From an uncultured Actinomycetota bacterium (GTDB lineage: Bacteria > Actinomycetota > Thermoleophilia > RBG-16-64-13), in the NCBI GenBank assembly GCA_963803925.1, contig CAWDOM010000005.1, forward strand, positions 134,295 to 198,294: a stretch of DNA of 64,000 nt. The letters are read 5' to 3'. The stretch's first letter is position 1. Each line of letters begins with the position of its first letter. Position numbers and translations under genes: made by a program. The notes beneath the pieces are model-generated. The model did no database searches and was not told where the DNA came from. It saw only the letters and a program-made list of their open reading frames with translations. Shown here piece after piece: positions 3,035-54,658 of this stretch.

Positions 3035-4498
3035 TCACGCCTCGATCTGCCGGACGTATTCGAGCGCACTCCTGCCGGCGATGCGACCGGAGTTGAACGC
3101 GAACGCTGAGGAGAGGCCTTGGGAAGTGGTGATCGGGTAGCTGTCCCCATACATCCCGCCCGCATCGAACCCGCCCGCATACAGCCCGGCGATGATGCCG
3201 TTCTTCTTGTCGAGCACCTCCATCTTCTCGTCCACCCTGATGCCCCCCATCGTCCCCAGGGTCGCCGTGTGGGCCTTCACTGCATAGTAAGCGGGCCCGA
3301 GCAACGGGCGGAGAAATGCCCGATCCTTGGCGAACCGCCCGTCGTGCCCCTTCGCGCAATGGGCGTTGTACTCGTCCACGGTCGCCTGCAAGGTCGCCGG
3401 CTCGATGCCGATCTGCCCGGCGAGGGCCTTCAACGAATCGGCCATGAACACCTCGTCGCTACCGGCGGAGATCGCCGACTCCATCTCCTTTCTCGCGTTC
3501 ACGGGCTTGTACCCGGCCAAGAACATCAACCCCAGGCTGCGGTCGATGCCGCGGTCGAGTTGACACTCGATGATGGAGTCGTCGAAGAGGCTGTACGTAA
3601 AACCGTCAGCGCTCCAGCGGGCGTTCACGTTGCCGGAGTTCGTGTCACACAGGGCGACGCTCTCGTCGCAGAACCTCTCTCCGCGAACGGTGACCCAGAG
3701 ATCGGGTTGCACCGACACCACCTCAACGTCGGTGCAGCCGAGCGCGAACTCGGGACCAACCGGCCCGACCCGGATCATCTCCTGTGCCCGCAGTCCCTCT
3801 TCGGCCGCCCCGGCCTCCCAGGCCATGCGGATGCCGTCGCCCATCTTGCCGGCGTTGCCCCACGCGAACAGATTCACGTCCAGATCGTAGCCGGTGTACT
3901 TCTTCACCCAGTCCCTGTTGTTCACGTAGCCACCGGTCGCGATGATCACGGCTTTGGCAGTCACCGGCAGTTCCTCGCCGTCCCGGTCGACCACCGCGCC
4001 CGTGATGCGGCCGCCCGCCTTGGCCAGCGCGGCGACCCGCGTTTCCGTTACGATCCGCACGCCTTTGCTCTTCGCGTGGTCCACGAGGGCCTTAACTACC
4101 GCTTCGCCGGTGCCCTCCACGACGTGGTACGTAGAGGGGACACCGGGCATCATCGTCATCTGACCCGTGAACTTCACTCCCTGGTGTTTCAACCAGGCTA
4201 TGGTCGCCGCCGACTCGTCGACTATCGCCCGCACCAGAGAGGCATTCGCCTTCCAATGACTGTATTCCATGATGCTCTTGAAGGCATCGTCCCTGCTGTA
4301 GTCGATGAAGCGTTCGCGCTGCATCTCGCTCTCGACGGCGAAGGTGCCGCGGAAGAAGTTCGAGGTGCCACCCAACGCGCGTTGCTTCTCGAAGACGACA
4401 ACATCCGCTCCCCCTTCGGCAAGGGTCAGCGCCGCTGCCAGACCGGTCGCGCCCGAACCCGCGACCAGTACGTCGACCTGTGCAGGAATAGTAGTCAT
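3035..4498 (-). CDS. FAD-dependent flavoprotein, fumarate-reductase / 3-ketosteroid-dehydrogenase-like (FAD_binding_2 family), paralog 1
   Basis: Has the VAGSGATGLAAAL dinucleotide motif and C-terminal GTMGGIRVD...GLYAGG. Start chosen at the internal Met (MTTIPAQVDV), which has a GGAGGAT RBS and avoids overlap with the downstream VOC gene. The ORF track extends to 4582. Confidence 0.8.
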   Translation of the reverse strand: MTTIPAQVDVLVAGSGATGLAAALTLAEGGADVVVFEKQRALGGTSNFFRGTFAVESEMQRERFIDYSRDDAFKSIMEYSHWKANASLVRAIVDESAATIAWLKHQGVKFTGQMTMMPGVPSTYHVVEGTGEAVVKALVDHAKSKGVRIVTETRVAALAKAGGRITGAVVDRDGEELPVTAKAVIIATGGYVNNRDWVKKYTGYDLDVNLFAWGNAGKMGDGIRMAWEAGAAEEGLRAQEMIRVGPVGPEFALGCTDVEVVSVQPDLWVTVRGERFCDESVALCDTNSGNVNARWSADGFTYSLFDDSIIECQLDRGIDRSLGLMFLAGYKPVNARKEMESAISAGSDEVFMADSLKALAGQIGIEPATLQATVDEYNAHCAKGHDGRFAKDRAFLRPLLGPAYYAVKAHTATLGTMGGIRVDEKMEVLDKKNGIIAGLYAGGFDAGGMYGDSYPITTSQGLSSAFAFNSGRIAGRSALEYVRQIEA

Positions 4499-5529: not shown

Positions 5530-7621
5530 CTAGATAGCGCGACCGATCGCGGCGCCGTCGGCAAAGGCGCCGTGCATGTAGCCGAACTCCTTGACGTCAC
5601 CTATTTGGTAGACCTCAGGCGCCCCTTGCACCGAAGACCTGATCGCGTCGGTGCCGGGCTCCAGCGGCAAGGCAAGGATGATGCTGTCGGCCTCAAGGGT
5701 CCTCAGCTCTCCCTCCGCGGTGGTGATCACCAGTCCCTCATCGGTGATCTTCTGGTAGGCGACACCCGCCAGCGCGACCCCGCCCTTCTCCTCAAACCAG
5801 TTGAGCAGCCGCACCGGAGTCAGATAGGGCAGCCCCTCGCCGAGAACCGCGCCCTCCTCGACGATGGTGACCGACCTCCCCCGCTTGACGAGGAACTCCG
5901 CAAGCTGGCAGCCCTGCACTCCGCCGCCCACCACGACGACTCTCTTGCCGACCGGCATGTACCACTTGGTGAGCCGCCCCAGCAACTCCGGCCCGAAGAC
6001 CCTCAAGGCGAGCTTGAGCCTACGATGCAGGGACGCGCTGTCGATGACCTTGGGATCGTCCAGACCGGGTATCGGCGGAACGGCGTTCTTTCCACCCGTC
6101 GCAAGGATGAGCACATCGGGCTTGACGGAGTCGATCAGAGCGCTGTCGACGCTGCGCCCTAGCCGCACCTCCACGCCCAGCTCGGCAAACTGCCGCTTGT
6201 AGTACCGGATCAGACCCAGCAGACTTTCCCGCTCGTGATCCTTGACCACGGCGGCGATGGGGAGCAGCCCGCCCAACTGCGCGGCTGCGTCATAGATGGT
6301 GACGTCGTGACCCCGCAGGGCCGCCACTCTAGCCGCCTCCAACGCGGCCGGTCCGCCGCCGGCGATCATCACCCGCTTCTTCTTTGCAGCCGGCTTGATC
6401 TCGTACTCGCGCTCCTTGCCCGACTCGGGGTTGACCCTACAGCTCTGCGGACCATCGTCCTTGCGCGTGTCGACGCAGTAGCAGCAGCCACAGCAGGGGC
6501 GGATGTCGTCGAGACGGCCGGCCGCCACCTTCCGAGGCAGCTCGTGGTCGGCGATAAGACGTCTGGTCATACCCACGAAGTCGATCTTGCCCTCCCCGAT
6601 GGCTTGATCGCCCAGTTCGGGAGTGAGCCGCCCGGCGCAGAAGACCGGTATGGAGACCGCCCGCTTCACCGCCGCCGCCATATTCAGGTACATACCCGGT
6701 CCGCCATGGCTGATGTCCAACTCGTCCAGATCGAGGTTGGGCACCTCCGGATAGAGGAGCGTCTCAGGGAAGAGCATTTCCAGATACGGCCCGTAGCTGG
6801 AGGCCCTCACTTGAAGGATGTCGGCCCCCGCCGCTTCGAGGTAGGGCGCCATGGCCTCGGCCTCCTCCAAGGTGGTGCCGTTGGTGAGACCGAATTCCCG
6901 GGCGTTGATGTTGGTGGCAACTGGATAGTCCTTGCCGCAGCGCCGCTTGACCTCGCGGATGATGTCGCAGTAGAACCGAGTCCGGTTCTCTATAGTCTGC
7001 GGCCCGTACTCGTCGTCTCGCCGGTTCCAGAACCGGGACAGGAAGCAGTTTATGAGGTGATAGAAGGAGGCGTTGATCTCCACGCCGTCGTATCCGGCTT
7101 TCTTCGGCCAGTTCCACTGAGTGGGCGAAGATATCAACGACGTCGTGGATCTCCAGCACCGTGAGTTGATGGCCGGACTCCCACTCCCAGAAGCTCGGCG
7201 GCATGTCCTCTTGGGCGATTGTCGATGCCGTGATGCGCTCCTGTGGCCCCAACCCGGGCAGCCGAGCGAGCCATGGCCCGGCGTGCATCAGTTGCACGAA
7301 CACGGGGCAATCGTGCTTGTGAACTGCCGCCGTCACGCGGGCGTGCCCCGGCACGTAGCTTTCGTCGTGCAGCCGGAAACCGGTGGGGATGACGTGGGTG
7401 CCCCTCGGCCACTCCACGGCGCAGTTCTCCACGATGACGAGACCCGCCCCGCCCTCGGCTATCGCGCCGTAGAAATCCGCCATCCTGTCGGTGCCATGGC
7501 CGTCTCCGTCGGCGTACCCTGTACCCGCGGCCGTCTTGATGATGCGGTTCTTGGTACGCAGACCCCCGATTGTGCCCGGCTCCAGCAACCTCTCGAGCCG
7601 CCCGGATCCTCCCACTCTCAT
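5530..7621 (-). CDS. Old Yellow Enzyme / 2,4-dienoyl-CoA-reductase-like FMN + FeS + FAD/NAD(P) oxidoreductase, paralog 1. It has a single frameshift near 7105.
   Basis: The N-terminal OYE barrel (ORF 6764..7621) and the continuation (ORF 5530..7137, KKAGYDGVEINA ... RPCCGCCYC ... GGGPAALEAA) are in different frames, meeting at ~7105-7112. About 697 codons in total. Confidence 0.7.
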
Positions 7622-7744
7622 CCTCCAGCAATTGACGTCACCCCACGCTGCGCGACTCTGCCGCTTTCCTCGAACAGTCGTTCACATACCGTACCAATAA
7701 CCCGTCTTGCTTGTCAACGTTTGCGAACGACCGTTTACCTGTGT

Positions 7745-8548
7745 TCATGGCCATTGCAGCCGTCTGGTGCGCGCCATCTTCCAGAGCTCCTCATTGGTGC
7801 CGGGCTGCAGCAGGCAGGCAGGCAAGGGGCACAGCGCCATGAACTCCTCATGGCGCGCCACTATGCTGTTGATTCGCTCCTCGGGCCATGCCCTGTCCCA
7901 TCCCAGCCCGAGATCCTCGTTCACGATGACCACGTGGAAGTCGGTGTGCGGAGGCCTGCGCTCGATGATCGTCGTGACCGCGCACACCTTCGTGGGCCCG
8001 ACACAGTCGTGGCAGCAACCCGACCTGGTACAGGGAGCGGGGGCGCCTTTGCGCCGCAGGTGTTCGGGCGCGATCACGTTCTTCACGCGGTCGATGGCCT
8101 CGTCGAGGCTTTTCACGAGCTTGTTTCGACCAACAACGAGCACGGTGGTCGGATGCCCCCAAACCATGCCGGCGACCCGGTTTCCGGCGCCATCCACGTT
8201 CACCAGCCTTCCGTCTTCTGTCAATGAGTTGCTCCCCGTGAGAAAGACGTCGCACAAGCTCGCTTCGAGCATCGGCCAAAACGAGTTCTCGAACAGCGAG
8301 CGAACGTCGCTCACGTTGCTCGGGATGGAGAACCCATTGATCAGCCGGTTGCCCCGCGCTTCGAGCGCCTCCACGACCCCTATCTGCCGCACACTGGTGG
8401 AATCCCCCGTTCCCACCACCGCCTGGGGATGCACTATGCCGAGTACTATGTCACGAGCCTCCGCGGCATCCTCAGCCGCCCAGCCTTCGATCTGTCTCTG
8501 TCTCAACGCTCTGATGACTCGCGCGATAGCCTGGTCCATTCTGCTCAC
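7745..8548 (-). CDS. LUD-domain (LutC/YkgG-like) protein with a Cys-rich C-terminal tail
   Basis: 267 aa. Motifs resemble the LUD domain (TGDSTSV; FLTGSNSLTEDG...VWGHPT). The C-terminus has CTRSGCCHDC...C and CPLPAC. Confidence 0.4.
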   Translation of the reverse strand: MSRMDQAIARVIRALRQRQIEGWAAEDAAEARDIVLGIVHPQAVVGTGDSTSVRQIGVVEALEARGNRLINGFSIPSNVSDVRSLFENSFWPMLEASLCDVFLTGSNSLTEDGRLVNVDGAGNRVAGMVWGHPTTVLVVGRNKLVKSLDEAIDRVKNVIAPEHLRRKGAPAPCTRSGCCHDCVGPTKVCAVTTIIERRPPHTDFHVVIVNEDLGLGWDRAWPEERINSIVARHEEFMALCPLPACLLQPGTNEELWKMARTRRLQWP

Positions 8549-8573
8549 CTATGTGTACGCTCGTTCACCACCA

Positions 8574-8619
8574 TTGACAGGAGCTTAGCACCTCTGCTAG
8601 GTTAGTGAACAAATGTTAT
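8574..8619 (+). promoter_or_regulatory. Promoter/operator block upstream of TetR paralog 1: TTGACA-N18-TAGGTT-A-GTGAACAA-AT-GTTAT
   Basis: Nearly identical to the block upstream of TetR paralog 2 (23504..23550). Read directly from the sequence. Confidence 0.45.
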
Positions 8620-8849
8620 CTGCAAGTCGCTTGCTCTGGGGGTGCTGGTCTTTCGTGTTTGTGCCCAGGGCACTCTGCCCGGCCGGTCGGTAAGATTCTC
8701 GATGTAGCTTCGGCCCGACCGCGACAAGGAGACAGGCTTTCATGGGCGCAGACGAACAAGAAGCGATCAGACGAGGGGCGGACACGCCGGCCCATACCCC
8801 ACCATCACGACGGGGTGTCCGCGTCGATAAAACGCGCAAACAAGGGCGC

Positions 8850-9437
8850 ATGGCAAAGGAAGAGCGACAGAAGCAGATCGCCGATGTCACCCTTCGGCTC
8901 GTGGCCAAACACGGCGTCCATGGCGCCACCATATCTCGCATCGCCTCGGGGGTCGGGCTTTCTCGAGCCGCCCTCTACAAGTGCTATCCGAATCGCGAGG
9001 CCATGCTCGAAGCCGCGCTCGACCTTCTCATTTCTCGGGTTCCAAGGTGGATAGCCCGCTCGTCGGGCGAGACCGTCTACGAACACCTCATGGATATGGG
9101 CAACCAGTTCGGCCCGTTGGGCACCGCCGAATTCGAGAACTTCACGCATCCCTGGTTCCAGTTCGCGGCGGCGAGCGGGACGGGCAATCTGACCCAGGAG
9201 TTGGCCAAGCGGCATCTGGTCTTCATCCGGGACTTCGCCGTCCTCATCGAGCAGGGAAAGCGCGATGGGAGCATCCGCGAGGATACGGACACGAATCTCA
9301 TAGCCTGGAGTCTGATGATGTGGGCCTGGGCGGCGGACGTCGCCCGCCTGGTCGGGCTGGAGCAGGTCATGGGCACCGGCACGGAGGTCGAGATCTTCAG
9401 GCGCATGCTAGGTGACATCGCGGCTCGGGAGGTATAG
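8850..9437 (+). CDS. TetR/AcrR family transcriptional regulator, paralog 1
   Basis: N-terminal HTH (ATISRIASGVGLSRAALYKCYPNREAML). Start at the internal Met (MAKEERQKQ); the ORF track begins at 8742. About 75% identical to the TetR at 23617. Confidence 0.75.
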   Translation: MAKEERQKQIADVTLRLVAKHGVHGATISRIASGVGLSRAALYKCYPNREAMLEAALDLLISRVPRWIARSSGETVYEHLMDMGNQFGPLGTAEFENFTHPWFQFAAASGTGNLTQELAKRHLVFIRDFAVLIEQGKRDGSIREDTDTNLIAWSLMMWAWAADVARLVGLEQVMGTGTEVEIFRRMLGDIAAREV

Positions 9438-11831: not shown

Positions 11832-12800
11832 CTCGCGGAGCTTTCCCTGGCGGCCGGCAACCGTGGCGGCGATACTGGCATTCGTTTGCGCGCTGCCCTT
11901 CATCTTCACCGGCGCGTACGGCCGCCAAGTGCTGGTGGTGTGCGGAATCAACATCATCGTTGCCTGTAGTGTGCGTCTTATCAATCTGACCGGGCAGTTC
12001 TCGCTCGGCACCGGCGCAATGATGACTCTGGGCGGCTATCTTTCAGCCCTCTTGGCAATCCACTATGGCGTGTCGCCCTGGATAGGCTTTGTGATCGCCG
12101 CCGCCGCCGCGTTCGTGGTCGCCTGCTTGTTCGGCATCGCCTTCGTCCGCCTCAAGGGCATGTACTTTGCGATGGTGACGTTGTTCTTCGCGCAGATCGT
12201 GACCCTCATCGTGCTCGATCTGCGCAGTTTCACCGGTGGCATCAACGGGCTCTTCGACATCCCGTGGCCGAACGGTATCCGGGTCGAGACCGCGTTCTTC
12301 TACGTGGTGGTGGCTATCTCTGCGCCGTCTGCCTGCTGGTGTTCTATCTCCTCGAGCACTCACGCTTGGGTTTGGTGTTCCGGGGAATAAGACAGACGGA
12401 GACCCTCTGCGAGAGCGTCGGCATCAACGTTCGCATCATGAAGGTGCTGGCCTTCGGACTCGGTTCGCTCTTCGCCGGGCTCGCCGGCGCATGCTACGGG
12501 CACTACATGCAGGCTCTCAACCCCTCGGCCTTTGGTTTCACGTTCACGCTCTACGCCGTGATCTACATGGTGGTGGGCGGGAGCAATGCGTTCGTGGGGC
12601 CTATCGTGGGCGCAACCGTCTTGACACTGGCGAACAACCTGCTCCGGGCGTTCGCCAAGTTCCAGCCCTTGTTCTTCGCGGCAGTGTTGCTGTTGATCGT
12701 GTTCCTCATGCCTGAGGGACTCGTCGGACTGCCGAAACGGACGATGACCGTGGTCAGCAGATATCGAGAGCGAAGGAGCGCACGTGCTGCTCAGGGTTGA
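11818..12800 (+). pseudogene. LivM-like ABC permease, frameshifted near 12330
   Basis: ORFs 11818..12390 and 12264..12800 are both LivM-like but in different frames. Confidence 0.65.
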
Positions 12801-13554
12801 GGGATTGACCAAGCGGTTCGGAGGCCTGCAGGCCGTCTCCGGACTCGACATGGGCGTCGAGTCCGGGCGAGATCGTCGGACTCATCGGACCCAACGGAGC
12901 CGGCAAGACAACGGTCTTCAATCTGCTGACCGGAGCTCATCGGCCGACGAGCGGCAAGGTGACGTTCTGAGGATAGGGACATCACCGGGTGGAAGCCTCA
13001 CTCGGTGGCGGCGCTGGGCATGGTGCGCACGTTCCAGATCACGAACATCTTCTCGAACTTCACCGTCCAGGAGAATCTGGTTCTCGCATGCAATCTCAAG
13101 GCGGACATCAGCTATTGGGGATCGACATTCCGCACGCGTAGAAGCCGCGCCAAGGAGAAGCAGGTCCTGCAGCGCTGCGACGAGATCCTGGAGACGGTCG
13201 GCCTGCAGAGCGTGAAGACCGCCACTGCCGGCACGCTCGCGCACGGGCACAAGAACCTGCTCGGTATCGCCATCGCTTTGGCGGCCGAACCGAAACTGCT
13301 CCTGCTCGATGAGCCCCTGGCTGGAATGAACGCACACGAGGTGCTCAGGAGGCTCTCGACGTCATCCGCAGGCTGTGGGCGAACGGAACGACTATCTTGC
13401 TGATAGAGCACAACATGAAAGCAGCCATGGCGCTCTGCGAGCGACTGGTGGTCATCAGTTTCGGCAAGAAGATCGCCGAAGGCACACCGGCGGAGATACG
13501 GGCAGAACAGATCGGTGATCGAGGCCTACCTTGGGGACGATACCTATGTTGCTT
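12784..13554 (+). pseudogene. LivG-like ABC ATPase, multiply frameshifted
   Basis: Walker A fragment ([18 protein letters not shown]...), then LivG pieces at 13005..13403 and 13350..13554 in other frames. Confidence 0.65.
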
Positions 13555-14268: not shown

Positions 14269-16238
14269 ATGACGTTGTCACTGCCCACAAGATACCCGCA
14301 CGTGTTCCGGCCGATCACTGTCGGCAACATGACGCTCAAGAACCGCATCCAGTTCTCGCCCATCGTGTCTCGTCACGCCGACCCCTACACGGGCACCTCG
14401 CACCAACGACCTGGTGGAGTTCCTCGGCGCCCAGGCCCGCTCGGGCGTGGGTTGGTCACCATCGGCTCGTCGCCCATCGACTTCGATCGGGCCCGCGACT
14501 TCTATGGATGCCTCTCGGTCGTACGGGAGAGCCGACGTGGCCAGCCTGTCGGTGCTCGCCGAGGAGGTGCACCGCTACGGCGCGAAGCTGTCCATCGAAC
14601 TGACCCACGCCGGCGCCGTCAGCGACCCTGCCCTACTCGCCGGCCCGGCCTTCGCGCCCTCGGTCATCCCGGGCATCCACAACCCGCACACCACCAAGGA
14701 GATCGACCGGGCCGAGATGGATGAGGTGAAGCAGCATTGGGTCGACTGCGTGCGACGGGTCAAGCGGGCCGGCTTCGACATGGCCATGATCCACGGCGCT
14801 CATATGAACCTGTTCGCCTCGTTCCTCACCCCGCTACTCAACCACCGCACCGACGATTATGGTGGAAACCCAGAGAACCGCATGAGGTTCCCGCTGGAGG
14901 TCCTCGAAGGCGTGCCGCGAGGAAGCCGGACCGGACTTCGGTCTCGAGCTGCGCATCAGCGGCGACGAGCGTGTGCCGGGTGGCGTGACGCTCGAGGAGC
15001 GCATCGCCTTTCTCAACGCAGCCGCTCCTTACATCGATATGGTCATCGTCTCCACGGGCGGCTTCCTCTTCCCCGAGACGGCCGCATACATGATGGCCGG
15101 CTACCACTTTCCCCACCTGCTGAACGTGGAGACCGCGGCCGAGATCAAGAAGGAGCGTGGACCTCCCGGTCTCGGTGGTCGGCGGCATAACCACCATCGA
15201 TGAGGCCGAGGAGATCCTCGCCGCCGGCAAGGCCGACATCGTGGCCATGGCCAAGGCGCTCATCGCCGACCAGGACCTGGTGACCAAGGCCAAGGTGGGC
15301 AGGGCCGACGAAATCCGCCCCTGCCTGCGCTGCCTCGAGTGCGCGTACGGCGGCCTCATCGGCACCCCCCTGCGCTGCGCAGTGAATCCCCAGGCCGGCC
15401 GTGAGATCAAGTACCGCGAGATCCCCCTCGCTCGAAGGAAGAAACGGGTGCTGGTCATCGGAGGCGGTCCCGCGGGTATGACGGCCGCGCGCGACGCCTG
15501 CGAGCGCGGCCATGAGGTGACCCTGTGGGAGAGGTCGGAGAGACTGGGCGGGCGCCTCTTCGAAGCCGCGGCGTTGCCTCAGAAAGACACGGCCCGCGCC
15601 TACGTCGACTGGGCGATCCGATCGACCATGAAGTGCGGCGCCACGAGTCGTCTGGGCAAGGAGGCTACTCCCGCCGACATCGAGGCGGAGGCGCCCGACG
15701 CGGTCATCGTCGCGGTCGGGGCCGAACACGCCCGGCCACCGCATCGACGGGATCGACCTGCCGCACGTCATGACCGTCTCCGAGGCCGACCTGGGTAGCA
15801 GAAGCCGGTGGATCAGAACCGTGGTTGTCTGCGGAGGCGGGCTCTCCGGCTCAGAGTGCGCCGCCGGACTGGCCATGGCGGGCAAGAAGGTCACGGTGGT
15901 CGACATCCTGCCCGAGGAAGCCCTGTGCCAGGACGCCGTCGACCTTGTCCGGGTCGCCCTTTTCGCACTTCTGAAAGACAAGGGCGTCGAGCGGGTCCAG
16001 GGCGCCGTGAAGAGCCATCACCACGACGGGGGTCGCCATCGACCCTCCCTGACGGTGGCACCATCGAACGTTGCCGGCGGACACAGTGGTCATCGCGTTC
16101 GGCCTCCGGCCGAACGTAGCGATTGTCGAATCACTGCTCAACGTCGTCGCGGAGAGCTATGTGGTGGGGGACTGCAGGAACGTAGGCAGAATCTTCGCAG
16201 CCAATCACGACGCGTTCAACGTCGCCGTGGAGGTGTGA
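14269..16238 (+). pseudogene. OYE / 2,4-dienoyl-CoA-reductase-like oxidoreductase, paralog 2, with about 5 frameshifts
   Basis: OYE and FAD/NAD-domain fragments sit at 14269.., 14414..15190, 14973..15203, 15157..15798 and 15770.. in different frames (FDMAMIHGAHMNLFASFL; RPCLRCLECA; VLVIGGGPAGM). AAAGGAG RBS before the ATG at 14269. Confidence 0.65.
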
Positions 16239-16281
16239 CGTGTGCCCTTCGCCGGCAACAAACGAGCAGCGCCGAGCCAGC

Positions 16282-17475
16282 ATGATCGAGGCGCACATCG
16301 ACTCTCTGCTGCGGCAGAGGCTAGAGACTTTGGAGCGCGCCAAGAACGAAGGGACGAAGGTGGTAGGTTACCTTCCTGGAGGATTCGTACCCGATGAGCT
16401 GATCTACGCGTCGGGAGCGATCCCCTTGTGTCTTGCCGCCGGAGGGGACGGCCGCGTGGCGGATGAGGCGCTCTCGCTCGTGCCGAACGTGATCTGTCCG
16501 TTCGCTCGAGCGCAGATCACCGAGCTGATGCGACAGACCGATCCGTTCTACAACGCGATAGACCTGCTCATCGTTCCCTCGACCTGCCAGCACATGAAGA
16601 AGATCGGCGACATCTGGGAGTTCCAGGAAGGCAGGGAGGTGTTCAAGCTCGGCGTGCCATACGAGCACGACAAGGCCTTCGAGCTCGAGTACTACCGAGA
16701 CCGCCTGTACGCTTTGAAGAAAAGGCTCGAGGCACTCACAGGCAAGAACATCACGGATGACAGACTCTTCGAGGCGGCCGAGACATACAACCATCTGCGG
16801 CTACTTCTGAGGACCTTGGGACAGACGCGCCGGAACGCGCACCAAGAGGACGAAGCGATCAGTACGCTCGAGTTTGCCCGACTCAGCCACGCTTCGTTCT
16901 ACGCGGATCCGGTGGCGATGACCGCGTCGCTCGAGGAGATCTGCGCTGAAATCCCCTCCAGCGCAGATCCCTCGGCCGACATCCCCGGCCTGTCTCTTCG
17001 GAGGCGACCGCGGCTCCTGCTCGTGGGGCCCAACCTGGCGGCCGGAGACTACGACCTGCTGAAGATGGTCGTCGACGCCGGCGCGGACGTAGTCGTCGAG
17101 GACATCTTCGAGGGCATACGCGACTATGGGCAGGTCGTCGACCTGTCCGGGCGCGAGGACTGCTTGGAGGCCCTCGCCAGAGCCTACCTAATCGACAAGA
17201 GACCAGCGGCTTTCATGCGCGGATCGCTGCCCCCGAGGCTCGATCATCTTCTCTACCTGACTCGGGACTTCGCTGTATCGGGCGTGCTCTGGTATCAACT
17301 CCTCTGCTGTGAGTTCTACGATGAGGAGTCCTACTATTTCCAGAGGATGCTGCAGGAGCGCGGCATCCCCATGCTCGTGATCGAGTCCGACTATCACGCC
17401 CTCGACTCGGGGCAGCTCAGAACGAGGTTGGCCGCCTTCGTCGAGACCTTACAGGGAGGTCCAATCGATGCGTGA
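16282..17475 (+). CDS. 2-hydroxyacyl-CoA dehydratase / BcrBC-family (HGD-D domain) subunit, ~400 aa, pair 1
   Basis: Conserved Cys in VICPFARA, TCQHMK and LLCCEFYDEES. Start at the Met that aligns with the paralog at 27100; the ORF track begins at a GTG at 16240, which has a GGAGG RBS and is an alternative start. Confidence 0.7.
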   Translation: MIEAHIDSLLRQRLETLERAKNEGTKVVGYLPGGFVPDELIYASGAIPLCLAAGGDGRVADEALSLVPNVICPFARAQITELMRQTDPFYNAIDLLIVPSTCQHMKKIGDIWEFQEGREVFKLGVPYEHDKAFELEYYRDRLYALKKRLEALTGKNITDDRLFEAAETYNHLRLLLRTLGQTRRNAHQEDEAISTLEFARLSHASFYADPVAMTASLEEICAEIPSSADPSADIPGLSLRRRPRLLLVGPNLAAGDYDLLKMVVDAGADVVVEDIFEGIRDYGQVVDLSGREDCLEALARAYLIDKRPAAFMRGSLPPRLDHLLYLTRDFAVSGVLWYQLLCCEFYDEESYYFQRMLQERGIPMLVIESDYHALDSGQLRTRLAAFVETLQGGPIDA

Positions 17476-18865
17476 GTTGCTGGCACTGTGTGGGTTCGAC
17501 GAGCGTGAGAGCAGTGAGCTCCTCCCCCGCGTTCAGCAGGTCTTCGTTCGCACCGGACTGACCGCCGCGGACATCGAGATCGCGAAGCAACGCTTGACCA
17601 CCTACTACGACATGGAGCTTCGCGGCGTTCGCAGACTGATGGGTCTCTTCCTCAAGGACTTCTGCGATATCGTCCTCATGAGGGAAGACGGCAGAAAACG
17701 CATCGTTCACGCCTGCATGCTGCCGGGGATGGACCTACTCGGATCGGCCATCATGGACAACACGGCGGAGGTCGGGTTGATTAGCCCGAACACCACGTTC
17801 ATGGTCGTCTTGGGCTGCATGTTCGGTAAGTTCGTGCCCGTTCTCGAGGCCGCGGAGAGGCAATGGCTGAAGGCCGGAGCGGTAGCGCATTGCGGTATGG
17901 TGAAGAGCAGGGTCGGGCTGATCAGTCTCGGCCTCATCCCGAGGCCTGACCTGACCATCACATCGGGATACGTCTGCGAGACGAGCCCCAAGGTGAACGA
18001 GATAATCGAACAGGTACACGGCATACCCGCCTGCTTCGTGGACGCCATGGAGGACCGGGAGCTGTGGGAATACCCGGCCGCGTCCCGAGCGACGACCTAC
18101 GCCGCCAAGAGCATGCGGGCCGCCTGTGGGCGAATCGAGCAGGTGACGGGCTTCGGTCTGGCGGACGACATGCTGTGGCGTGTCATCGAGGGTCGAAGGC
18201 CCCTCGATGAAGCCATGAACAGAGTGGCAGAGCTGATCAGAACGGCCGACCCTCTGCCGCTTGGCTCCACTCATTTGAACTTGCTGCTGGCCGTCAACTG
18301 CATTTCGTTTGTCGGAGACCAGCTGCCCGAGGCGATCGACATTCTCGACACTCTGCGGGCCGAGTTGCTGGCCAGAACCCGCAGGGGAGTCGGCGCTACG
18401 CCGAAGGGAGCGCCTCGCGTGCTCGCGATCTTTCCGCACCACCACTCCGATCCTCGCTGGGAGCACCAAGCGAATCAGGCCGGCCTCGCCATAGTCGCCT
18501 TCGATTTCCAAGGAGCTTCGGAACTGGCCGGCTCCGAAGTCGCGATCGCCGACCCCAACGATCCCTACGAAGTCATCGTGCAGAACCTCCACGGGTCGTT
18601 CACTCAGCCCCTGGGCGGACGCATCGCCATCGTGGTCGACTTTTGCAGGCGGTTGAGGGTGGACGGGGTGCTCAATCACTACCACCTCGGGTGCCGGTAC
18701 GTCGTGGGTGACGCGTTGATACTGCGGGATGCGATCGTCAAGGAGCTCGGCATGCCGGTGCTCATGGTCGAATGGGACAACTTCGACCCCCGTTCCTACA
18801 ATCAAGAACAGTATGAAGCCAAGCTGGAGACTTTCAGAACCATGATCGAATCGAGGGTTTCATGA
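17468..18865 (+). CDS. 2-hydroxyacyl-CoA dehydratase / BcrBC-family (HGD-D domain) subunit, 465 aa, pair 1
   Basis: Cys in VLGCMFGKF, HCGMVKSRVG and HYHLGCRY. It overlaps the upstream subunit by 8 nt, consistent with translational coupling. Confidence 0.7.
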   Translation: MRELLALCGFDERESSELLPRVQQVFVRTGLTAADIEIAKQRLTTYYDMELRGVRRLMGLFLKDFCDIVLMREDGRKRIVHACMLPGMDLLGSAIMDNTAEVGLISPNTTFMVVLGCMFGKFVPVLEAAERQWLKAGAVAHCGMVKSRVGLISLGLIPRPDLTITSGYVCETSPKVNEIIEQVHGIPACFVDAMEDRELWEYPAASRATTYAAKSMRAACGRIEQVTGFGLADDMLWRVIEGRRPLDEAMNRVAELIRTADPLPLGSTHLNLLLAVNCISFVGDQLPEAIDILDTLRAELLARTRRGVGATPKGAPRVLAIFPHHHSDPRWEHQANQAGLAIVAFDFQGASELAGSEVAIADPNDPYEVIVQNLHGSFTQPLGGRIAIVVDFCRRLRVDGVLNHYHLGCRYVVGDALILRDAIVKELGMPVLMVEWDNFDPRSYNQEQYEAKLETFRTMIESRVS

Positions 18866-20302
18866 CGGACTCTGGACGCCGTGAGTCAAACGCCGACGCG
18901 ACCGAGCTGTTTGTCGCCAGTTTCCAGAACGCCACGTTCGAGAACCTACCGTCCGAAGTGGTCGAGATCACCAAGCACCAAGTGCTCGACTTCTTCGGTG
19001 TCGCGCTGGGCGGTTCCGGAGAGGCCGGTGTCGCCGAGATGCGCGATCTGGTGCTCGAATGGAGCGGAACGCCGCAGGCCCACGTCTTTCGTTGGGGCGA
19101 CATGGTGCCGGCGCCCGACGCCGCCCAGGTCAACGCGACCATGGCTCACTCGCTCGATTTCGACGACGTCCATGAGGATGCGATCATGCACCCGGGAGTC
19201 GTGGCGATCCCCACAGCCCTTGCCATGAGCGAATATGTCGGAGACGTGGACGGCCGGGAGTTCCTCACCGTGGTTGCCTTGGCTACCGACTTCATCTGTC
19301 GTTGCGGCCTGGCAACCCGGCCAGGCGAGAGCAAGCTGCCGTACGGATGGCACCTGACGACACTCTACGGCGCCATGACGGCAGCCTTTGTCGCTGCCCG
19401 TCTGCTGCGCATGGACGCCGACACCATGACCAGCGCGGTCGGCATCGCGTACCACCAGGCCTCGGGAAACGGCCAGTGTGTGAAAGACGGGGCTCTCACA
19501 AAGCGTATGGGCCCGGGCATGGCCGTGCGGGCAGGCATCGTGTCGGCGCTCATGGCCAAGCGGGGCATCACGGGAGCCCGCAACTGCCTGGAAGGCGCGG
19601 CCGGTCTGTACAACGTCTACCACATGGGTGCCTACTCGCGCGAGAGACTGGTGAACGACCTCGGCGCGCGCTTCGAGGGCCTCAACGTGTCGATCAAGCC
19701 CTATCCCTGCTGCAGGGGCGTGCATGCGTTCATCGATGCCGGCCTGGCCCTTGTCGACCAAGCATGATCTCCGCCCAGACGATGTGGAGAGCATCCTCAT
19801 CCAGTGCGGAGAGGGCACCTACGGGCTTCTGGGCTCTCCGCTTGAGTTCAAGAAGCGGCCTCGCAATCCGGTCGACTCCCAGTTCAGTATCGTCTGGGGA
19901 GTAGCGACGGCTCTGGCGCGGCGCCGCGCGACACTCGCCGACTTCACGTGGGAGGCGATCGGCAGCAGCGACATCCTCGGTCTCTCGACGAAGACTGATG
20001 TGCGGGTGGAGCCCGAGTTCAACCGTGGCGACCAGGGTATCGAGCCCGCACGGGTGACCGTGCGCATGAGAGACGGCGGGGTGTTCGTGGAGCAGTGCGA
20101 CCTACCCACCGGCACGCCTTCGCGGCCGCTCTCCTTCTCCGACATCGAGCGAAAGTTCCGGAGCCTGCTGGAACATGCGGGCCAGCCGATTCCCACCGGT
20201 GCCGCCGACCGGCTCGTGCAGACGGTCGCCCGGCTGGACAACCTTGAGGACACCCGCGATCTCGCCCGTCTGGCGGGACAAGAACAGGGAGTGAAACAAT
20301 GA
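18862..20302 (+). CDS. MmgE/PrpD family protein (2-methylcitrate-dehydratase-like), paralog 1, frameshift near 19740
   Basis: ORFs 18862..19767 and 19724..20302 both carry MmgE/PrpD-family sequence in different frames. ATGA overlaps at both ends. Confidence 0.65.
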
Positions 20303-22724: not shown

Positions 22725-23453
22725 TCACGGATAGACCGACTGCCTGAGAGCGAGTGGATCATGGCCTGGGAGGATCGTGCCTCCGAGATCCCTCAGTCGG
22801 TCTAGGCTCTCGTAATACTCCCGGAGGTCGACGTAGAGCGGCCCGGGCCAGAACGACGCACCAACAGGAACATCCATGTTGACATAGTGGGCTATGGTGT
22901 CCCCCGCGAGTACGAACAAGCCGTCGTCGGTATCAACGAGCACGGCTTGGCTTCCCGGAGAGTGCCCCGGAGTCACAATCACCCGAATGCCGTCGGTGAT
23001 CTCGGTTTCACCATCGATGACATCGAGGTCCATGCTCGCCAAGTCGACGTCGTAGGCCTGTATGTGTGCCGCGAGGGGATGGCGCGCGTACTCCAGCTCG
23101 CTCTTCTGTACAACGAAGCGGGCGTTGGGAACGAGACAGTTGCCGGCGCAGTGGTCCAGATGGAGGTGGGTGTTGACGACCAGCCGGATATCCTCCGGCG
23201 CCAGGTCGAACCTCTTGAGCTGCGCCTCCAAGGTATGCTCCGGAATCCGCTTGAAGTCGCCCTTCAGATCCTCCTCCTCCATCGACCCGAAGCCGGTGTC
23301 GACCAACACGGCCTCATCGCCGCTCCGCAGCAACCAGGCCAGAACCACGCCGTCGACGCTGCCTCCAGGCGGCGACATCAGGAGCACCTGGGAGATGTTC
23401 CTAATCGCGGTTGCCAGCACCAGGGGGGCTATCGTCCACTTCTTGCGCGTCAT
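22725..23453 (-). CDS. MBL-fold metallo-hydrolase (lactonase-like)
   Basis: HLHLDHCAGN (HxHxDH) motif and downstream His/Asp ligands. Confidence 0.75.
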   Translation of the reverse strand: MTRKKWTIAPLVLATAIRNISQVLLMSPPGGSVDGVVLAWLLRSGDEAVLVDTGFGSMEEEDLKGDFKRIPEHTLEAQLKRFDLAPEDIRLVVNTHLHLDHCAGNCLVPNARFVVQKSELEYARHPLAAHIQAYDVDLASMDLDVIDGETEITDGIRVIVTPGHSPGSQAVLVDTDDGLFVLAGDTIAHYVNMDVPVGASFWPGPLYVDLREYYESLDRLRDLGGTILPGHDPLALRQSVYP

Positions 23454-23503
23454 CTTCTCGTCTCCCTCCAGTCAAATCGGTGTACAAGCGTTCACATCGG
23501 TTA

Positions 23504-23550
23504 TTGACATCCTATCGCAGCTCCTGATAGTTTTGGTGAACAATCGTTAT
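23504..23550 (+). promoter_or_regulatory. Promoter/operator block upstream of TetR paralog 2: TTGACA-N18-TAGTTT-TG-GTGAACAA-TC-GTTAT
   Basis: AT-rich divergent intergenic region between the MBL hydrolase gene and the TetR gene. Conserved with 8574..8619. Confidence 0.45.
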
Positions 23551-23616
23551 AAAGATTCTGGGCGGAGTGGCGTTGGGACGGACACCAGGGGCTTCTGCCG
23601 GGAGGGTCACCGAGCT

Positions 23617-24345
23617 GTGCGCAAGGGCATTCGAGCAACGCGAGAGCAAAGGCAACGTCAGATCGCCGACGTCACGCTGAAGCTGATCGCCCGGTACGGG
23701 GTCCACGGCGCCACCATCTCGCGTATCGCGTCGGGCATCGGACTAACGCGATCGGCTCTCTACAAGTTCTTCCCCAACCGTGAAGCGATGCTCGGGGGGG
23801 CTCTGGATCTCCTCGTGGAGCGGGTACCCCGGTGGATCGACCAATCGTCCGGACGCGACGTCTACGAGCATTTGATGGACATGGGCAGACAACATGCGCC
23901 GCTGGGCCGGGCGGAATTCGAGTCCTTCACCCGGCCCTGGTTCCAGTTCATCGCGGCCAGCAGCGCGGAGCAGATGACCCACGAGCTGGCCAAGCGTCAG
24001 ATGGTCTTCGTTCAAGACTTCGCGATCCTCGTCGAACAGGGGAAGCGCGACGGAAGCATCCGGGAGGATGTGGACAGCAGTCTGGTCGCGTGGGCTCTCA
24101 TGATGTGGGGATGGGCGGACGACGTCGCCCGTCTGGTCGGGCTGGAGCAGGTGATGGGAACCGAGATGTCGATCGAGATCTTCAGGCGCATGCTCGGGGA
24201 CATAGCCGGTCCTTCTCGCGACTCGGGCGGCGCCCGGGACGAGAGAGCAGGCGCCGGAGGGATTGATGGGCGTGATGGGCGTGATGGGCATGGGGTGCGC
24301 CCCGTCGAAGAAAGCGCGACGATCACAACCGACCCACGACCATGA
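23617..24345 (+). CDS. TetR/AcrR family transcriptional regulator, paralog 2
   Basis: GTG start with a GGAGGG RBS 10 nt upstream. HTH ATISRIASGIGLTRSALYKFFPNREAML. The long upstream part of the ORF track (from 23062) is a Pro/Ser/Arg-rich shadow. Confidence 0.75.
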   Translation: MRKGIRATREQRQRQIADVTLKLIARYGVHGATISRIASGIGLTRSALYKFFPNREAMLGGALDLLVERVPRWIDQSSGRDVYEHLMDMGRQHAPLGRAEFESFTRPWFQFIAASSAEQMTHELAKRQMVFVQDFAILVEQGKRDGSIREDVDSSLVAWALMMWGWADDVARLVGLEQVMGTEMSIEIFRRMLGDIAGPSRDSGGARDERAGAGGIDGRDGRDGHGVRPVEESATITTDPRP

Positions 24346-26138: not shown

Positions 26139-26275
26139 AGCCGGCCGGACCGCGACCGCACGCCATGAGCAAGCGATCCGGACAGACGACGGTGGTGCGA
26201 GAACTGGCGTTCATCGGCACCGCCTGCGACTGGAACGTGTGTCTTGGAAGATGATCGCACGCAAGGAGAACCACA

Positions 26276-27099: not shown

Positions 27100-28254
27100 A
27101 TGAAGATCCCCCAGATCGGCGCCCTGATGGAGACGAGACTGCAGGACCTGGCAGAAGCCCGCGGCCGCGGCACAAAGGTCGTGGGGTATCTCTCCGGCGG
27201 CTTCGTGCCCGACGAGCTCATCTACGCGTCGGGAGCCATCGCGCTCTGCCTCAGCCATGGCGGCGAGGCCCGGGCGACTGAGCGGGCGCTCGCGCTCGTG
27301 CCCAACGTGATCTGCCCGTTCGCCCGCGCCCAGATCGGCGAGACACTGCTGAGGACCAACCCTTTCTACGCTTCGTTGGACTTGGTGGTAGTGCCGACAA
27401 CCTGCCAGCATCTGAAGCAGGCCGGCGATGTGTGGGAGCACTTCGATGTGGTCGACGTCTTCAAGCTGGGCGTTCCCTACGACTGCCAGGACGACTACGA
27501 ACTCGAGTACTACCGAGACAGACTGGCCGAGCTGAAGAGGGCGCTCGAGCGACTCACCGGCACCCTCATCACCGACGACAAGCTGAACGATGCTATCGCC
27601 GTTCATAACCGGCTGCGCGGGCTGCTGAAGACGCTGAGCCTGGCGCGCCGCGGGCCGCGGCCGGCCGTCGACACCCTCGACTTCGTGCGACTGAACCACC
27701 TCTCCATGTATGCCGACCCCGTCAGCACCTGTGCTGTGCTCGAGACTCTCTGCGGCGCGACCGCCGAGCCGCCGGCGCCCGCGGCGAAGAGACCGCGTGT
27801 GATGTTGATCGGGCCCGCCCTCGCCTTCGGCGATTACGACATCATCAGGATGATCGCCGACGCGGGGGCCGACGTGGTGGTCGAGGAGGTGCTCGAGGGC
27901 ATGCGCGACTACTGGCAGGTCGTCGACGGCCCCGGCGATCCGCTCGACCGGCTCGCGAGAAGCTATCTACTCGGCAAGAAGCCGGCCGCGTTCATGAGGG
28001 GCGCGACCCGCAAGAGGCTCGATTTCGTGCTCGATCTCATCGAGGAGTTCGACGTCGACGGCGTGCTCTGGTACCAGCTGCTCTGCTGTGAGCTCTACGA
28101 CGAGGAGTCGTTCCTCTTCGAGAAGGTGCTGCAGAAACGGGGCATTCCCCTGCTGCTGGTCGAGTCCGACTACCACAACCTCGACGCGGGCCCGGTGCGC
28201 ACGCGGCTGGACGCGTTCGTCGAGATCCTACGAGGCGGGCCGGTCGATGCTTGA
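27100..28254 (+). CDS. 2-hydroxyacyl-CoA dehydratase / BcrBC-family (HGD-D) subunit, ~385 aa, pair 2
   Basis: About 65% identical to 16282..17475, with the same Cys motifs (VICPFARA, TCQHLK, LLCCELYDEES). The ORF track begins at 27022; start chosen by paralog alignment. Confidence 0.7.
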   Translation: MKIPQIGALMETRLQDLAEARGRGTKVVGYLSGGFVPDELIYASGAIALCLSHGGEARATERALALVPNVICPFARAQIGETLLRTNPFYASLDLVVVPTTCQHLKQAGDVWEHFDVVDVFKLGVPYDCQDDYELEYYRDRLAELKRALERLTGTLITDDKLNDAIAVHNRLRGLLKTLSLARRGPRPAVDTLDFVRLNHLSMYADPVSTCAVLETLCGATAEPPAPAAKRPRVMLIGPALAFGDYDIIRMIADAGADVVVEEVLEGMRDYWQVVDGPGDPLDRLARSYLLGKKPAAFMRGATRKRLDFVLDLIEEFDVDGVLWYQLLCCELYDEESFLFEKVLQKRGIPLLLVESDYHNLDAGPVRTRLDAFVEILRGGPVDA

Positions 28255-29674
28255 GCTTCTAGAACTCTGCGGATTCGACGACGGAGAACGTCAGGCTCAG
28301 CTCCCCCGAGTGAAGTCGGCCTTCTCGAGGCTGGACCTGACCGAGGACGACATCAAGACGGCCAAGGAGAGGCTCCACCTCTACTACGACATGGAGTTGT
28401 CGGGCGTCAGGATGATGGTGGGCGTCCTTCTGAAGGACATGGTCGATATCGTGCTGCTTCGCGACGAGGGCGCGCGAAAGGTCATCCATTCGTGCATGGC
28501 GCCGGGATTCGAGGTGCTCGGCACGGCCATCAACACGAACTCCGACGACGTTAGGCTGACCTATCCGAACTTCACATTCATGGCGGTCCTCGGGGGTGTG
28601 TTCGGCAGGTTCGTGCCGGTGCTCGAGGCTGCCGAGCGGTTGTGGCTGCGAGGTGGCATCGTGCGCCACTGCGGCATGGTCAAGGCCAGGGTGGGCCTCA
28701 TGAGCTTGGGACTGCACCCCCGGCCCGACCTGACGGTGACCACAGGCTACCTCTGCGACACCAGTCCGAAATCAAACGAGATCATGGAAGCGGTCTTCGG
28801 CATACCGGCGTACTGCGTCGACCATGTGCAAGATCGCCGGTCCGCCGAGTTCCCCGACGGCAGCCGGCTGACCGTGTTGTCTGCCAAAGGCATGCGCAGG
28901 TTCGGCGCCGTCGTGCAGAGAGAGACCGGCCTCGAGGTGACCGACGAGATGTTGTGGCGGGCCATCCAGGCGCGACGGCCCATCGGACAGGCGATGGATC
29001 GAGTGCTCGACGTGATCCGTCTCAACGACCCTCCACCGCTCGGGGCGACTCATCTCAACCTGCTCGCGGCGCTCGGCCGGCCGCCCTACAAGGAGAGTGA
29101 GATTCCGCGGGTGGTGGAAATCCTCGACACGCTCCGCGATGAGTTGGAGAACCGCGTGCGCGGAGGCGTGGGGGCGGTTCCCAAGGGTGCGCCTCGCATC
29201 CTCGTGCTGTGCCCAAACCATCACTCCGACCCCCGCTTCGAGTACCTGTCCAACCGGCTCGGCCTGAACATCGTAGCCTCCGACTTCAACTTCTCCTCGG
29301 GAGAAGACAGGTCGGGCGCGGGCATCGTCGACCCCAACGACCCATACGATGTCATCTGCCAGCATCCTCACGGCACCCCCGGTCAATGTCTGGGGGGGCG
29401 GGCCCATATCATTCTCGACGTCTGCCGGCGCCTCCGCATCGACGGCGTCATCGACCACTACCACGCGGGTTGCAGGTACATGGCCGCCGACACCGTCGCG
29501 CTGCGCGAAACGGTCACCCGGGAACTGGGTATTCCGGTGCTGGCCTATGAATGGGACAACTTCGACCCCCGTTCGTACAACGAGAAGGACCTGGTGGCCA
29601 ACCTCGAGACGTTCTGGGGAATGGTCGAAACGAGTGGCGGCCCAATCCAGCAAGGAGAAAAACGTCATGAGTGA
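28247..29674 (+). CDS. 2-hydroxyacyl-CoA dehydratase / BcrBC-family (HGD-D) subunit, ~475 aa, pair 2
   Basis: ATG at 28247 overlaps the upstream stop by 8 nt. HCGMVKARVG and HYHAGCRY are conserved, but VLGGVFG replaces VLGCMFG of the paralog. The ORF track starts at 28088. Confidence 0.7.
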   Translation: MLELLELCGFDDGERQAQLPRVKSAFSRLDLTEDDIKTAKERLHLYYDMELSGVRMMVGVLLKDMVDIVLLRDEGARKVIHSCMAPGFEVLGTAINTNSDDVRLTYPNFTFMAVLGGVFGRFVPVLEAAERLWLRGGIVRHCGMVKARVGLMSLGLHPRPDLTVTTGYLCDTSPKSNEIMEAVFGIPAYCVDHVQDRRSAEFPDGSRLTVLSAKGMRRFGAVVQRETGLEVTDEMLWRAIQARRPIGQAMDRVLDVIRLNDPPPLGATHLNLLAALGRPPYKESEIPRVVEILDTLRDELENRVRGGVGAVPKGAPRILVLCPNHHSDPRFEYLSNRLGLNIVASDFNFSSGEDRSGAGIVDPNDPYDVICQHPHGTPGQCLGGRAHIILDVCRRLRIDGVIDHYHAGCRYMAADTVALRETVTRELGIPVLAYEWDNFDPRSYNEKDLVANLETFWGMVETSGGPIQQGEKRHE

Positions 29675-54528: not shown

Positions 54529-54658
54529 CCCCGTCTCCCCTTCGTTGGGTTGGTCTTCAGCGTCTTGGTCAGTTCCAGATCATCCTGAACGCTCGTTCAA
54601 CAACCTATCACCGCACGCCTGCCCCGTCAAACACACCGGCAGACAGTCCCGTATCCTC

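Follow-up and report, generated by a model that had tools for sequence, protein, structure and literature searches.

The block at positions 8574-8619 of a 64,000-nucleotide stretch from an uncultured Actinomycetota bacterium (contig CAWDOM010000005.1 of assembly GCA_963803925.1; the whole stretch is called the window) is very probably the core of a strong housekeeping-sigma promoter that is held off by a TetR-family repressor acting through two operators. The block lies upstream of a TetR-family gene, tetR1, and a twin lies upstream of a second such gene, tetR2. An earlier annotation (the original prediction) had described both copies as a promoter/operator block. The promoter core was borne out by our analysis, but we found it to be only part of a 68-72 bp unit with two operators, of which the upstream one (O1) had gone unreported. 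We refer to the units as cassettes, A at tetR1 and B at tetR2; the divergently oriented neighbours are a LUD-domain gene at A and a metallo-beta-lactamase-fold (MBL) gene at B. The architecture of the unit, its recurrence and its conservation under selection are reported below as observed.

Anatomy of the promoter-operator unit

Copy A consists of TTGACA (8574-8579), an 18-nt spacer, TAGGTT (8598-8603), a single A and GTGAACAAATGTTAT (8605-8619). Copy B consists of TTGACA (23504-23509), an 18-nt spacer, TAGTTT (23528-23533), the dinucleotide TG and GTGAACAATCGTTAT (23536-23550). The coordinates of the block had been predicted exactly, and the A or TG after the -10 is indeed the sole indel between the copies. 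A search of the 64-kb window with the 15-mer GTGAACAANNGTTAT, allowing up to two mismatches, matched only copies A and B, both exactly, where 0.26 matches were expected; chance is no explanation for the match. In each copy the -10 hexamer is preceded by TGN, making it an extended -10.

Alignment of the two tetR intergenic regions revealed a further conserved element, O1, 5-8 bp 5' of the -35. O1 and the element downstream of the -10 (O2) are versions of one dyad, both approximating GTGAACG-NN-CGTTCAC. The full order of the unit in both copies is O1, 5-8 bp, TTGACA, N18 ending in TGN, TAGKTT, 1-2 nt and O2, spanning 8553-8620 in A and 23480-23551 in B. The palindrome that had been called in the last element, AACA-NN-TGTT, lies on the same axis, but the dyad extends over 16 bp as GTGAACR-NN-YGTTMNN. 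The elements of the two cassettes are as follows.

8553-8568, unstranded: O1 of cassette A, the 16-bp imperfect dyad GTGTACGCTCGTTCAC (GTGTAC-N4-GTTCAC), 5 bp 5' of the -35, the LUD start codon being 14 nt away
8574-8579, plus strand: -35 TTGACA of the tetR1 promoter; TTGAC is invariant in 17/17 aligned cassettes
8595-8603, plus strand: extended -10 TGC-TAGGTT; TG-N-TA...T is invariant across the 17 aligned cassettes
8605-8620, unstranded: O2 of cassette A, GTGAACAAATGTTATC, beginning 1 nt past the -10, over the expected transcription start
23480-23495, unstranded: O1 of cassette B, GTGTACAAGCGTTCAC, 20.6 bits
23504-23533, plus strand: tetR2 promoter, TTGACA, N18 including TGA, TAGTTT
23536-23551, unstranded: O2 of cassette B, GTGAACAATCGTTATA

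O2 of cassette A is the element originally written as GTGAACAA-NN-GTTAT; at the orthologous position relatives read GTGAACGAGCGTTMNC, and the distal half of O2 in relatives is GTTMNC. O1 of cassette A is the best match in the window (22.9 bits) to an operator position weight matrix (PWM) trained on non-window loci only, and is conserved in position in the 17 aligned cassettes. Both copies, and the orthologues, carry dyad sites of about 15-17 bp that overlap the tetR core promoter. A simple promoter scanner missed copy A and assigned copy B another -10 (GATAGT, spacer 16), because a TATAAT-based rule is unsuited to TAGGTT-type hexamers.

Further cassettes in the window

We scanned the window with the operator PWM, trained solely on sites from other loci, using 200 dinucleotide-preserving shuffles of the window as the null. 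The top matches were the four sites of cassettes A and B together with 7723-7738, 7670-7685 and 54585-54600. Five matches reached at least 14 bits, compared to a mean of 0.43 in the shuffles. The promoter pattern TTGAC-N15-17-TGNTANNNT, which carries no operator information and is independent of the PWM, matched at exactly four places in the 64 kb (0.09 expected), namely cassettes A and B and two further cassettes, C and D. Each of the four matches has a dyad directly downstream. A motif occurring nowhere else had been named as a point that would tell against the original prediction; the motif does recur, before other genes of the same island.

7670-7738, minus strand: cassette C, with O1 GTAAACGGTCGTTCGC (7738-7723), TTGACA (7717-7712), N18, TGG-TACGGT (7696-7688), AT and O2 GTGAACGACTGTTCGA (7685-7670)
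5530-7621, minus strand: OYE-type FMN / Pyr_redox_2 reductase gene (Pfam), downstream of cassette C, ATG at 7621
54585-54630, minus strand: cassette D, with TTGACG (54630-54625), N17, TGA-TAGGTT (54610-54602), G and O2 TTGAACGAGCGTTCAG (54600-54585)
54528-53728, minus strand: SDR gene (Pfam), downstream of cassette D, ATG at 54528
53674-51782, minus strand: aldehyde:ferredoxin oxidoreductase (AOR) gene (Pfam), following the SDR gene downstream of cassette D

Cassette C has a 5-nt gap between O1 and the -35, and starts 6 nt past the LUD stop codon. The LUD gene is flanked by two cassettes, A and C, and read-through from its promoter would run into O1 of C. A comparison of the reductase gene behind cassette C with its intact 694-aa orthologue (in family locus L015) by tblastn placed a frame change at ~7097-7104. 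Cassette D sits between a hydantoinase-B/acetone-carboxylase-gamma-like gene and the SDR-AOR pair. An orphan dyad-like site at 26199-26214 (GAGAACTGGCGTTCAT, 13 bits) was observed in the 137-bp gap between two SDR genes, with no -35 or -10 in front of it and a score within the shuffled range; it may be a chance match or an internal operator.

Recurrence in related loci

The TetR family to which both proteins belong is small, with 73 clusters at E <= 1e-10, almost all of them metagenomic; the named members come from metagenome-assembled genomes of uncultured Actinomycetes and Gaiellales. Family loci (numbered with the prefix L) were taken from genome and metagenome collections. The cassette architecture precedes the tetR orthologue in L001, L002, L003, L005, L015, L017, L018, L020-L024 and L027, and likewise in L039, L040, L042 and L043, at TetR identities down to ~55%. 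It was also found before genes that do not encode a TetR: the orthologous OYE-type reductase in L001, L015 and L017, a related reductase in L006, an Asp/Glu-racemase-like gene in L017 and a GCV_T gene in L040. Across the window and the family loci, an operator half-site lies 1-4 nt past the promoter-pattern match in 26/26 distinct matches, and TGN precedes the -10 hexamer in all of the cassettes collected. The invariant columns of the 17-cassette alignment fall in O1 (CGTT..C), the -35 (TTGAC), the extended -10 (TG.TA...T) and O2 (GAA..G.T), and the spacers differ.

Some variants of the unit were seen among the relatives. In some orthologues (L017 at 3780-3860, L018 at 3780-3850, and L027) 19-32 bp are inserted between O1 and the -35, and the insertion in L017 contains a duplicated TTGACA. 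In L040 (3244-3300, plus strand) the cassette promoter is followed by the perfect dyad GTGAACACCAGTTCAC, before the GCV_T gene and divergent from a different TetR_N gene. Extra cassettes in L004 and L026 have dyads with a 3-nt centre instead of a 4-nt one.

Selection versus duplication

The tetR genes had been called paralogous, and their products are in fact 73% identical over 190 aa, with the genes 15 kb apart. This proximity, together with the restriction of the exact 15-mer to A and B, would suit the view that the block is a promoter copied along with tetR at duplication, its GTGAAC element having no operator function. We compared the elements of the two copies with positions expected to drift. 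Cassettes A and B are identical at 13/16 positions in O1, 6/6 in the -35, 5/6 in the -10 and 13/16 in O2, or 37/44 (84%) for the functional elements together, compared to 5/18 in the promoter spacer. Four-fold degenerate sites of tetR1 and tetR2 are 47% identical, where 36% is expected from base composition, and neutral sites are therefore near saturation. The positions conserved between A and B are those expected to contact RNA polymerase or a dimeric helix-turn-helix (HTH) protein. Judged from these identities, the conservation between the copies reflects selection and not recent duplication, which argues against a neutral remnant.

The elements also precede unrelated genes at C and D and orthologues in many lineages with different spacers, and the element is a dyad that occurs twice per promoter. 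A merely copied promoter is thus largely refuted by the comparisons and, in our judgment, extremely improbable. The autoregulatory promoter-operator that had been proposed gains strong comparative support, given that the elements are kept where spacer and synonymous sites are randomised and that the orthologues are alike. The accompanying phrase "retained after duplication" proved too narrow, since the unit also precedes the reductase gene and the SDR/AOR operon in the window and non-TetR genes elsewhere; the unit is therefore a regulon-wide promoter-operator cassette.

The uniform geometry before non-homologous genes (O1, 5 bp, -35, 17-18 nt, -10, 1-2 nt, O2) could instead come from common descent of a mobile or propagated promoter module, with no constraint by a regulator. 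However, the spacers of A, B, C and D are without similarity, neither terminal repeats nor target duplications were seen, and the conserved positions are limited to the expected RNA polymerase and dimeric HTH contacts. A mobile module has a negligible likelihood as the explanation of the geometry; being compatible with operator function, it would not be a real alternative to the promoter-operator cassette in any case.

The TetR proteins as candidate binders

The two regulator genes of the window are the following.

8742-9437, plus strand: tetR1, 231 aa; Pfam TetR_N (PF00440), 39.8 bits against a cut-off of 24
23617-24345, plus strand: tetR2, 242 aa; PF00440, 38.1 bits against a cut-off of 24

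The start of tetR1 had been placed at 8850. The ATG at 8742 is more likely, being preceded by an AAGGAGA ribosome-binding site (RBS), used in public gene calls and conserved in the 93%-identical orthologue of L015. An AlphaFold model (predicted local distance difference test score, pLDDT, 79.5) had 10 helices and showed the all-helical, two-domain TetR fold of ~200 aa, and Foldseek aligned it over the full length with many TetR structures at template-modelling (TM) scores of 0.7-0.8. Identity to any solved TetR is at most 23%, and no close characterised relative was found by sequence, fold or NCBIfam equivalogs. The known equivalogs (AcnR, KstR, BetI, FadR, RutR and others) were rejected, with NCBIfam scores of 20-32 bits against cut-offs of 118-368 and generic PDB matches. 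The name "repressor of aconitase" attached to one family member in a JGI record is an automatic label that nothing here supports. TetR1 has a basic N-terminal extension of ~36 aa (8742-8849), conserved in L015, and TetR2 a low-complexity Gly/Arg/Asp-rich C-terminal tail of ~45 aa (24210-24345) that is absent from TetR1.

In the recognition helix, R39, A41, L42, Y43 and K44 show little or no variation across the family, within which identity falls to 49%. The recognition helices of TetR1 and TetR2 show conservative differences only, and the operators at tetR1-type loci look no different from those at tetR2-type loci; cross-regulation by the two proteins is therefore likely. The only regulator that consistently adjoins the cassettes is the family TetR. 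The length and symmetry of the dyad, which fit a homodimer, together with co-localisation and co-conservation, point to the adjacent TetRs as the likely binders. A PWM made from the window's seven sites alone gave 31 matches in 126 kb of family loci compared to 2 in 134 kb around unrelated TetR genes, and the promoter pattern gave 21 and 0, respectively, these control loci coming from other phyla with a different base composition.

The composition of the control loci is one of several points that weigh against the TetR proteins acting through a pair of operators. The assignment of the binder is drawn from co-localisation and co-conservation. The O2 sites of A and B are weaker dyads, with a distal half of GTTAT compared to GTTCAC in the full dyad. 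Cassette D, which has no recognisable O1, is separated from the nearest tetR by 30 kb. L025 and L026, which are more remote members of the family (~50% identity), have no cassette upstream. The centre-to-centre distance of O1 and O2 is 51-56 bp, with a few outliers that carry insertions, and strict helical phasing for cooperative binding is therefore unsupported.

The position of cassette D far from any tetR, and the assignment of the TetRs from sequence, would also suit a reading in which the dyads are real operators bound by some other factor encoded elsewhere, a global regulator or LexA, with the TetRs as mere regulon members. The GAAC-N4-GTTC core of the 16-bp dyad is the same as that of the actinobacterial LexA SOS box, TCGAAC-N4-GTTCGA (PMC3381160, PMC9380542). 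The flanks, however, are GT...AC here compared to TC...GA in the SOS box: dyad positions 1-2 are G and T in 16-17/18 O2 and 17/17 O1 sites. One of the eight window sites (7670) comes within two mismatches of the LexA consensus, and the genes downstream encode catabolic enzymes and transporters, not DNA-damage or repair functions. The sites are paired around catabolic promoters, the motif accompanies this TetR family from genome to genome, the unrelated TetR loci lack it, and no other regulator gene is consistently nearby. Flanking bases, target genes and co-occurrence with the TetR family ruled out a LexA box, and we consider binding by another factor in general to be improbable.

Divergent genes and their putative promoters

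The neighbours of the tetR genes had been described as a LUD-domain and an MBL-fold gene, in agreement with their Pfam domains. They and their putative promoter elements are listed below.

7745-8539, minus strand: LUD-domain gene, divergent from tetR1; Pfam LUD_dom, E = 3.8e-32
22725-23453, minus strand: MBL-fold (lactonase-like) gene, divergent from tetR2, followed by a DUF169 gene
8582-8590, minus strand: putative extended -10 TGC-TAAGCT for divergent transcription of LUD, located within the tetR1 promoter spacer; TGT-TAAGCT in L015
23509-23514, minus strand: putative -10 TAGGAT of the divergent MBL promoter; TANGNT at the same aligned position in L003 and L039, where the rest of the spacer differs

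The LUD-tetR1 arrangement recurs in L015, L017, L027, L043 and the P0011 locus, and the MBL-tetR2 arrangement in L003 and L039. The LUD start codon is 14 nt from O1, with the RBS in the gap, and the MBL start is 26 nt from O1; the starts are so near that both divergent transcripts must begin inside the cassette. A minus-strand TANNNT was present in the spacer of 5/5 cassettes with a close divergent LUD or MBL gene (14-29 nt from O1) and in 0/21 other distinct cassettes, the five representing two lineages and not five independent events. The hexamers read TAAGCT in A and L015, TAGGAT in B, TATGCT in L003 and TACGAT in L039, and are kept while adjacent spacer bases change. O1 would then cover roughly positions +7 to +22 of the divergent transcript. 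A TetR regulator with a divergent neighbour within about 200 bp usually controls it (PMC3511530), and the intergenic distances of 202 bp (LUD-tetR1) and 163 bp (MBL-tetR2) fit this empirical rule. The proposed co-regulation of the LUD and MBL genes is thus supported by the minus-strand -10 embedded in the spacer, though as a prediction from sequence. O1 was kept also where no divergent gene is present (cassette C, L005, L040, the OYE cassette of L001, L020 and L042) and therefore belongs to the unit itself.

Comparison with known systems

A literature search with the motif combined with TetR terms found nothing specific. The tetO arrangement has two operators and serves an efflux pump. As in TetR/tetO and other divergent TetR regulators (PMC3511530), a TetR-fold regulator here is divergent from its presumed target across an intergenic gap of ~160-200 bp. 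Each control region has two palindromic operators that overlap the promoters, and by analogy autoregulation and release by a ligand would be expected. The differences are that the protein kinship is of the generic fold only (at the identities given above), that the targets are catabolic enzymes and uptake transporters and not an efflux pump, and that several other operons carry the unit as well.

Among published operators, the closest is that of RolR, which, like the system proposed here, is an actinobacterial TetR repressor of a catabolic (resorcinol) operon, in Corynebacterium glutamicum. The half-site and spacing of its REP1 repeat, TGAAC-N4-GTTCA (PMC9210681), are the core of the dyad described here, (G)TGAAC-N4-GTTCA(C), and rolO represses when set directly downstream of a -10 (PMC10415137). 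Unlike the paired sites of the cassettes, rolO is one site of 29 bp that includes a further repeat, TTCAT-N2-ATGAA, overlapping the first, and is bound by a pair of dimers; the second repeat does not occur in the window even with one mismatch. RolR, for which crystal structures are available (PMC3086911), appeared neither in the best 60 PDB hits to the family profile nor in the first 50 by fold, and the resemblance is thus confined to the DNA site. BioQ of C. glutamicum, one of the TetR proteins with an operator of 13-16 bp, binds a similar half-site as one homodimer, its dyad being TGAAC-N3-GTTAC (PMC9210681), but the spacing is N3 and not N4, it serves the biotin regulon and no specific protein similarity was shown. 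Judged from sequence features, the system would work like RolR and TetR but is not a member of the RolR group.

KstR and KstR2 of mycobacteria reuse a short AAC...GTT dyad at many promoters, their own included, and the KstR motif TnnAACnnGTTnnA has a 2-nt centre and not 4 nt. They resemble the system described here in being TetR repressors of large catabolic regulons. KstR was among the weak sequence and fold matches, with a similarity at the generic TetR level (E ~1e-5), and no steroid-catabolism genes are present here.

A proposed mechanism

The stereotyped two-operator cassette is best explained, from its sequence, as a switch shared by the promoters of a catabolic regulon in uncultured Actinobacteria. 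We infer the binding protein, repression over activation, the transcription start positions and the effector as follows. Homodimers of TetR1 and/or TetR2 would bind the 16-bp dyad GTGAACG-NN-CGTTCAC at two places per promoter. O2, 1-2 nt past the -10, would block the tetR promoter at its transcription start and in the region of the open complex, and O1, 5-8 bp 5' of the -35, would strengthen repression. Next to a closely divergent gene, as with LUD at A and MBL at B, O1 would fall just downstream of the opposite-strand -10, such that one operator pair could silence both promoters. A small-molecule effector, probably one that enters the encoded catabolic pathway as a substrate or arises in it as an intermediate, would free the repressor. 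Its release would derepress tetR, the downstream transporter and enzyme genes, the divergent gene, the OYE-type reductase behind cassette C and the SDR and AOR genes behind cassette D. Cross-regulation between TetR1 and TetR2 would be expected.

A TetR could alternatively act from O1, centred near -49.5, as an activator or dual regulator, with another role for O2, or the paralogues could divide O1 and O2 between them. The two sites do depart from the perfect dyad differently and in a conserved manner (G/T at position 4 of O1, a degenerate distal half in O2), and O1 is retained even without a divergent gene. Some TetR-fold proteins activate, and LuxR/HapR-type structures were among the fold matches. 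However, a near-consensus -35 with an extended -10 should need no activator, and an operator over the transcription start is in the classic repressor position. A division of sites between the paralogues is opposed by the indistinguishable operators of tetR1-type and tetR2-type loci. We regard these variants as very improbable.

Starting from repression through two operators, a broader proposal is that the unit is a modular, portable switch of fixed geometry set before many island operons, with 2-3 paralogous TetRs per genome sharing one operator code and integrating several ligands by competition or heterodimers. This extension is tentative and, in our view, unlikely; if true, a multi-TetR switch with a shared code would differ from the circuit of one repressor and one operon.

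Two other candidates were rejected. A structured RNA or riboswitch in the leaders found no Rfam match in the whole window, and the folding z-scores were +1.26 and -0.64 compared to shuffles. For an extracytoplasmic function (ECF) sigma promoter, with GTGAAC as a GGAAC-like -35 and CGTT as the -10, the two elements lie 3-4 nt apart within one dyad and not 16-17 nt apart, and no CGTT occurs 16-17 nt downstream of O2 in A or B.

The predicted regulon and the gene island

As regulatory biology, the proposed mechanism is conventional and indeed textbook, namely autoregulation of the TetR type through palindromic operators; undescribed so far are the specific operator, the family and the regulon. 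For an uncharacterised TetR subfamily, all known members of which come from metagenomes of uncultured Actinomycetes and Gaiellales-like bacteria, the analysis provides a precise operator that can be tested (GTGAACG-NN-CGTTCAC), the architecture of the promoter and an initial list of regulon genes. The predicted regulon joins a LUD-domain protein, an MBL-fold lactonase-like enzyme, a DUF169 protein and OYE-type reductases with SDRs, an aldehyde:ferredoxin oxidoreductase, and LivK-type and TRAP transporters. The cassette offers a handle for defining the pathway of the regulon and finding the inducer, and the compact repressor/operator pair is a possible biosensor part.

The island is rich in anaerobic-type catabolic enzymes (16240-19767, 28088-29674, 50256-51320 and 54659-58405). 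Its genes include several HGD-D (2-hydroxyacyl-CoA dehydratase / benzoyl-CoA-reductase-like) subunits, PrpD/MmgE, a glutamate-mutase E-like protein, hydantoinase A/B with an acetone-carboxylase gamma domain, the AOR and many SDRs. Several regulon genes show frame changes relative to intact orthologues, at 12318-12330, 12860-12969 and 14402-16244 in addition to that in the OYE reductase (7097-7104). Also interrupted are the genes for the second ABC permease and the first ABC ATPase, and a second OYE-like gene is split into four frame pieces; the changes could be long-read assembly indels or gene decay.

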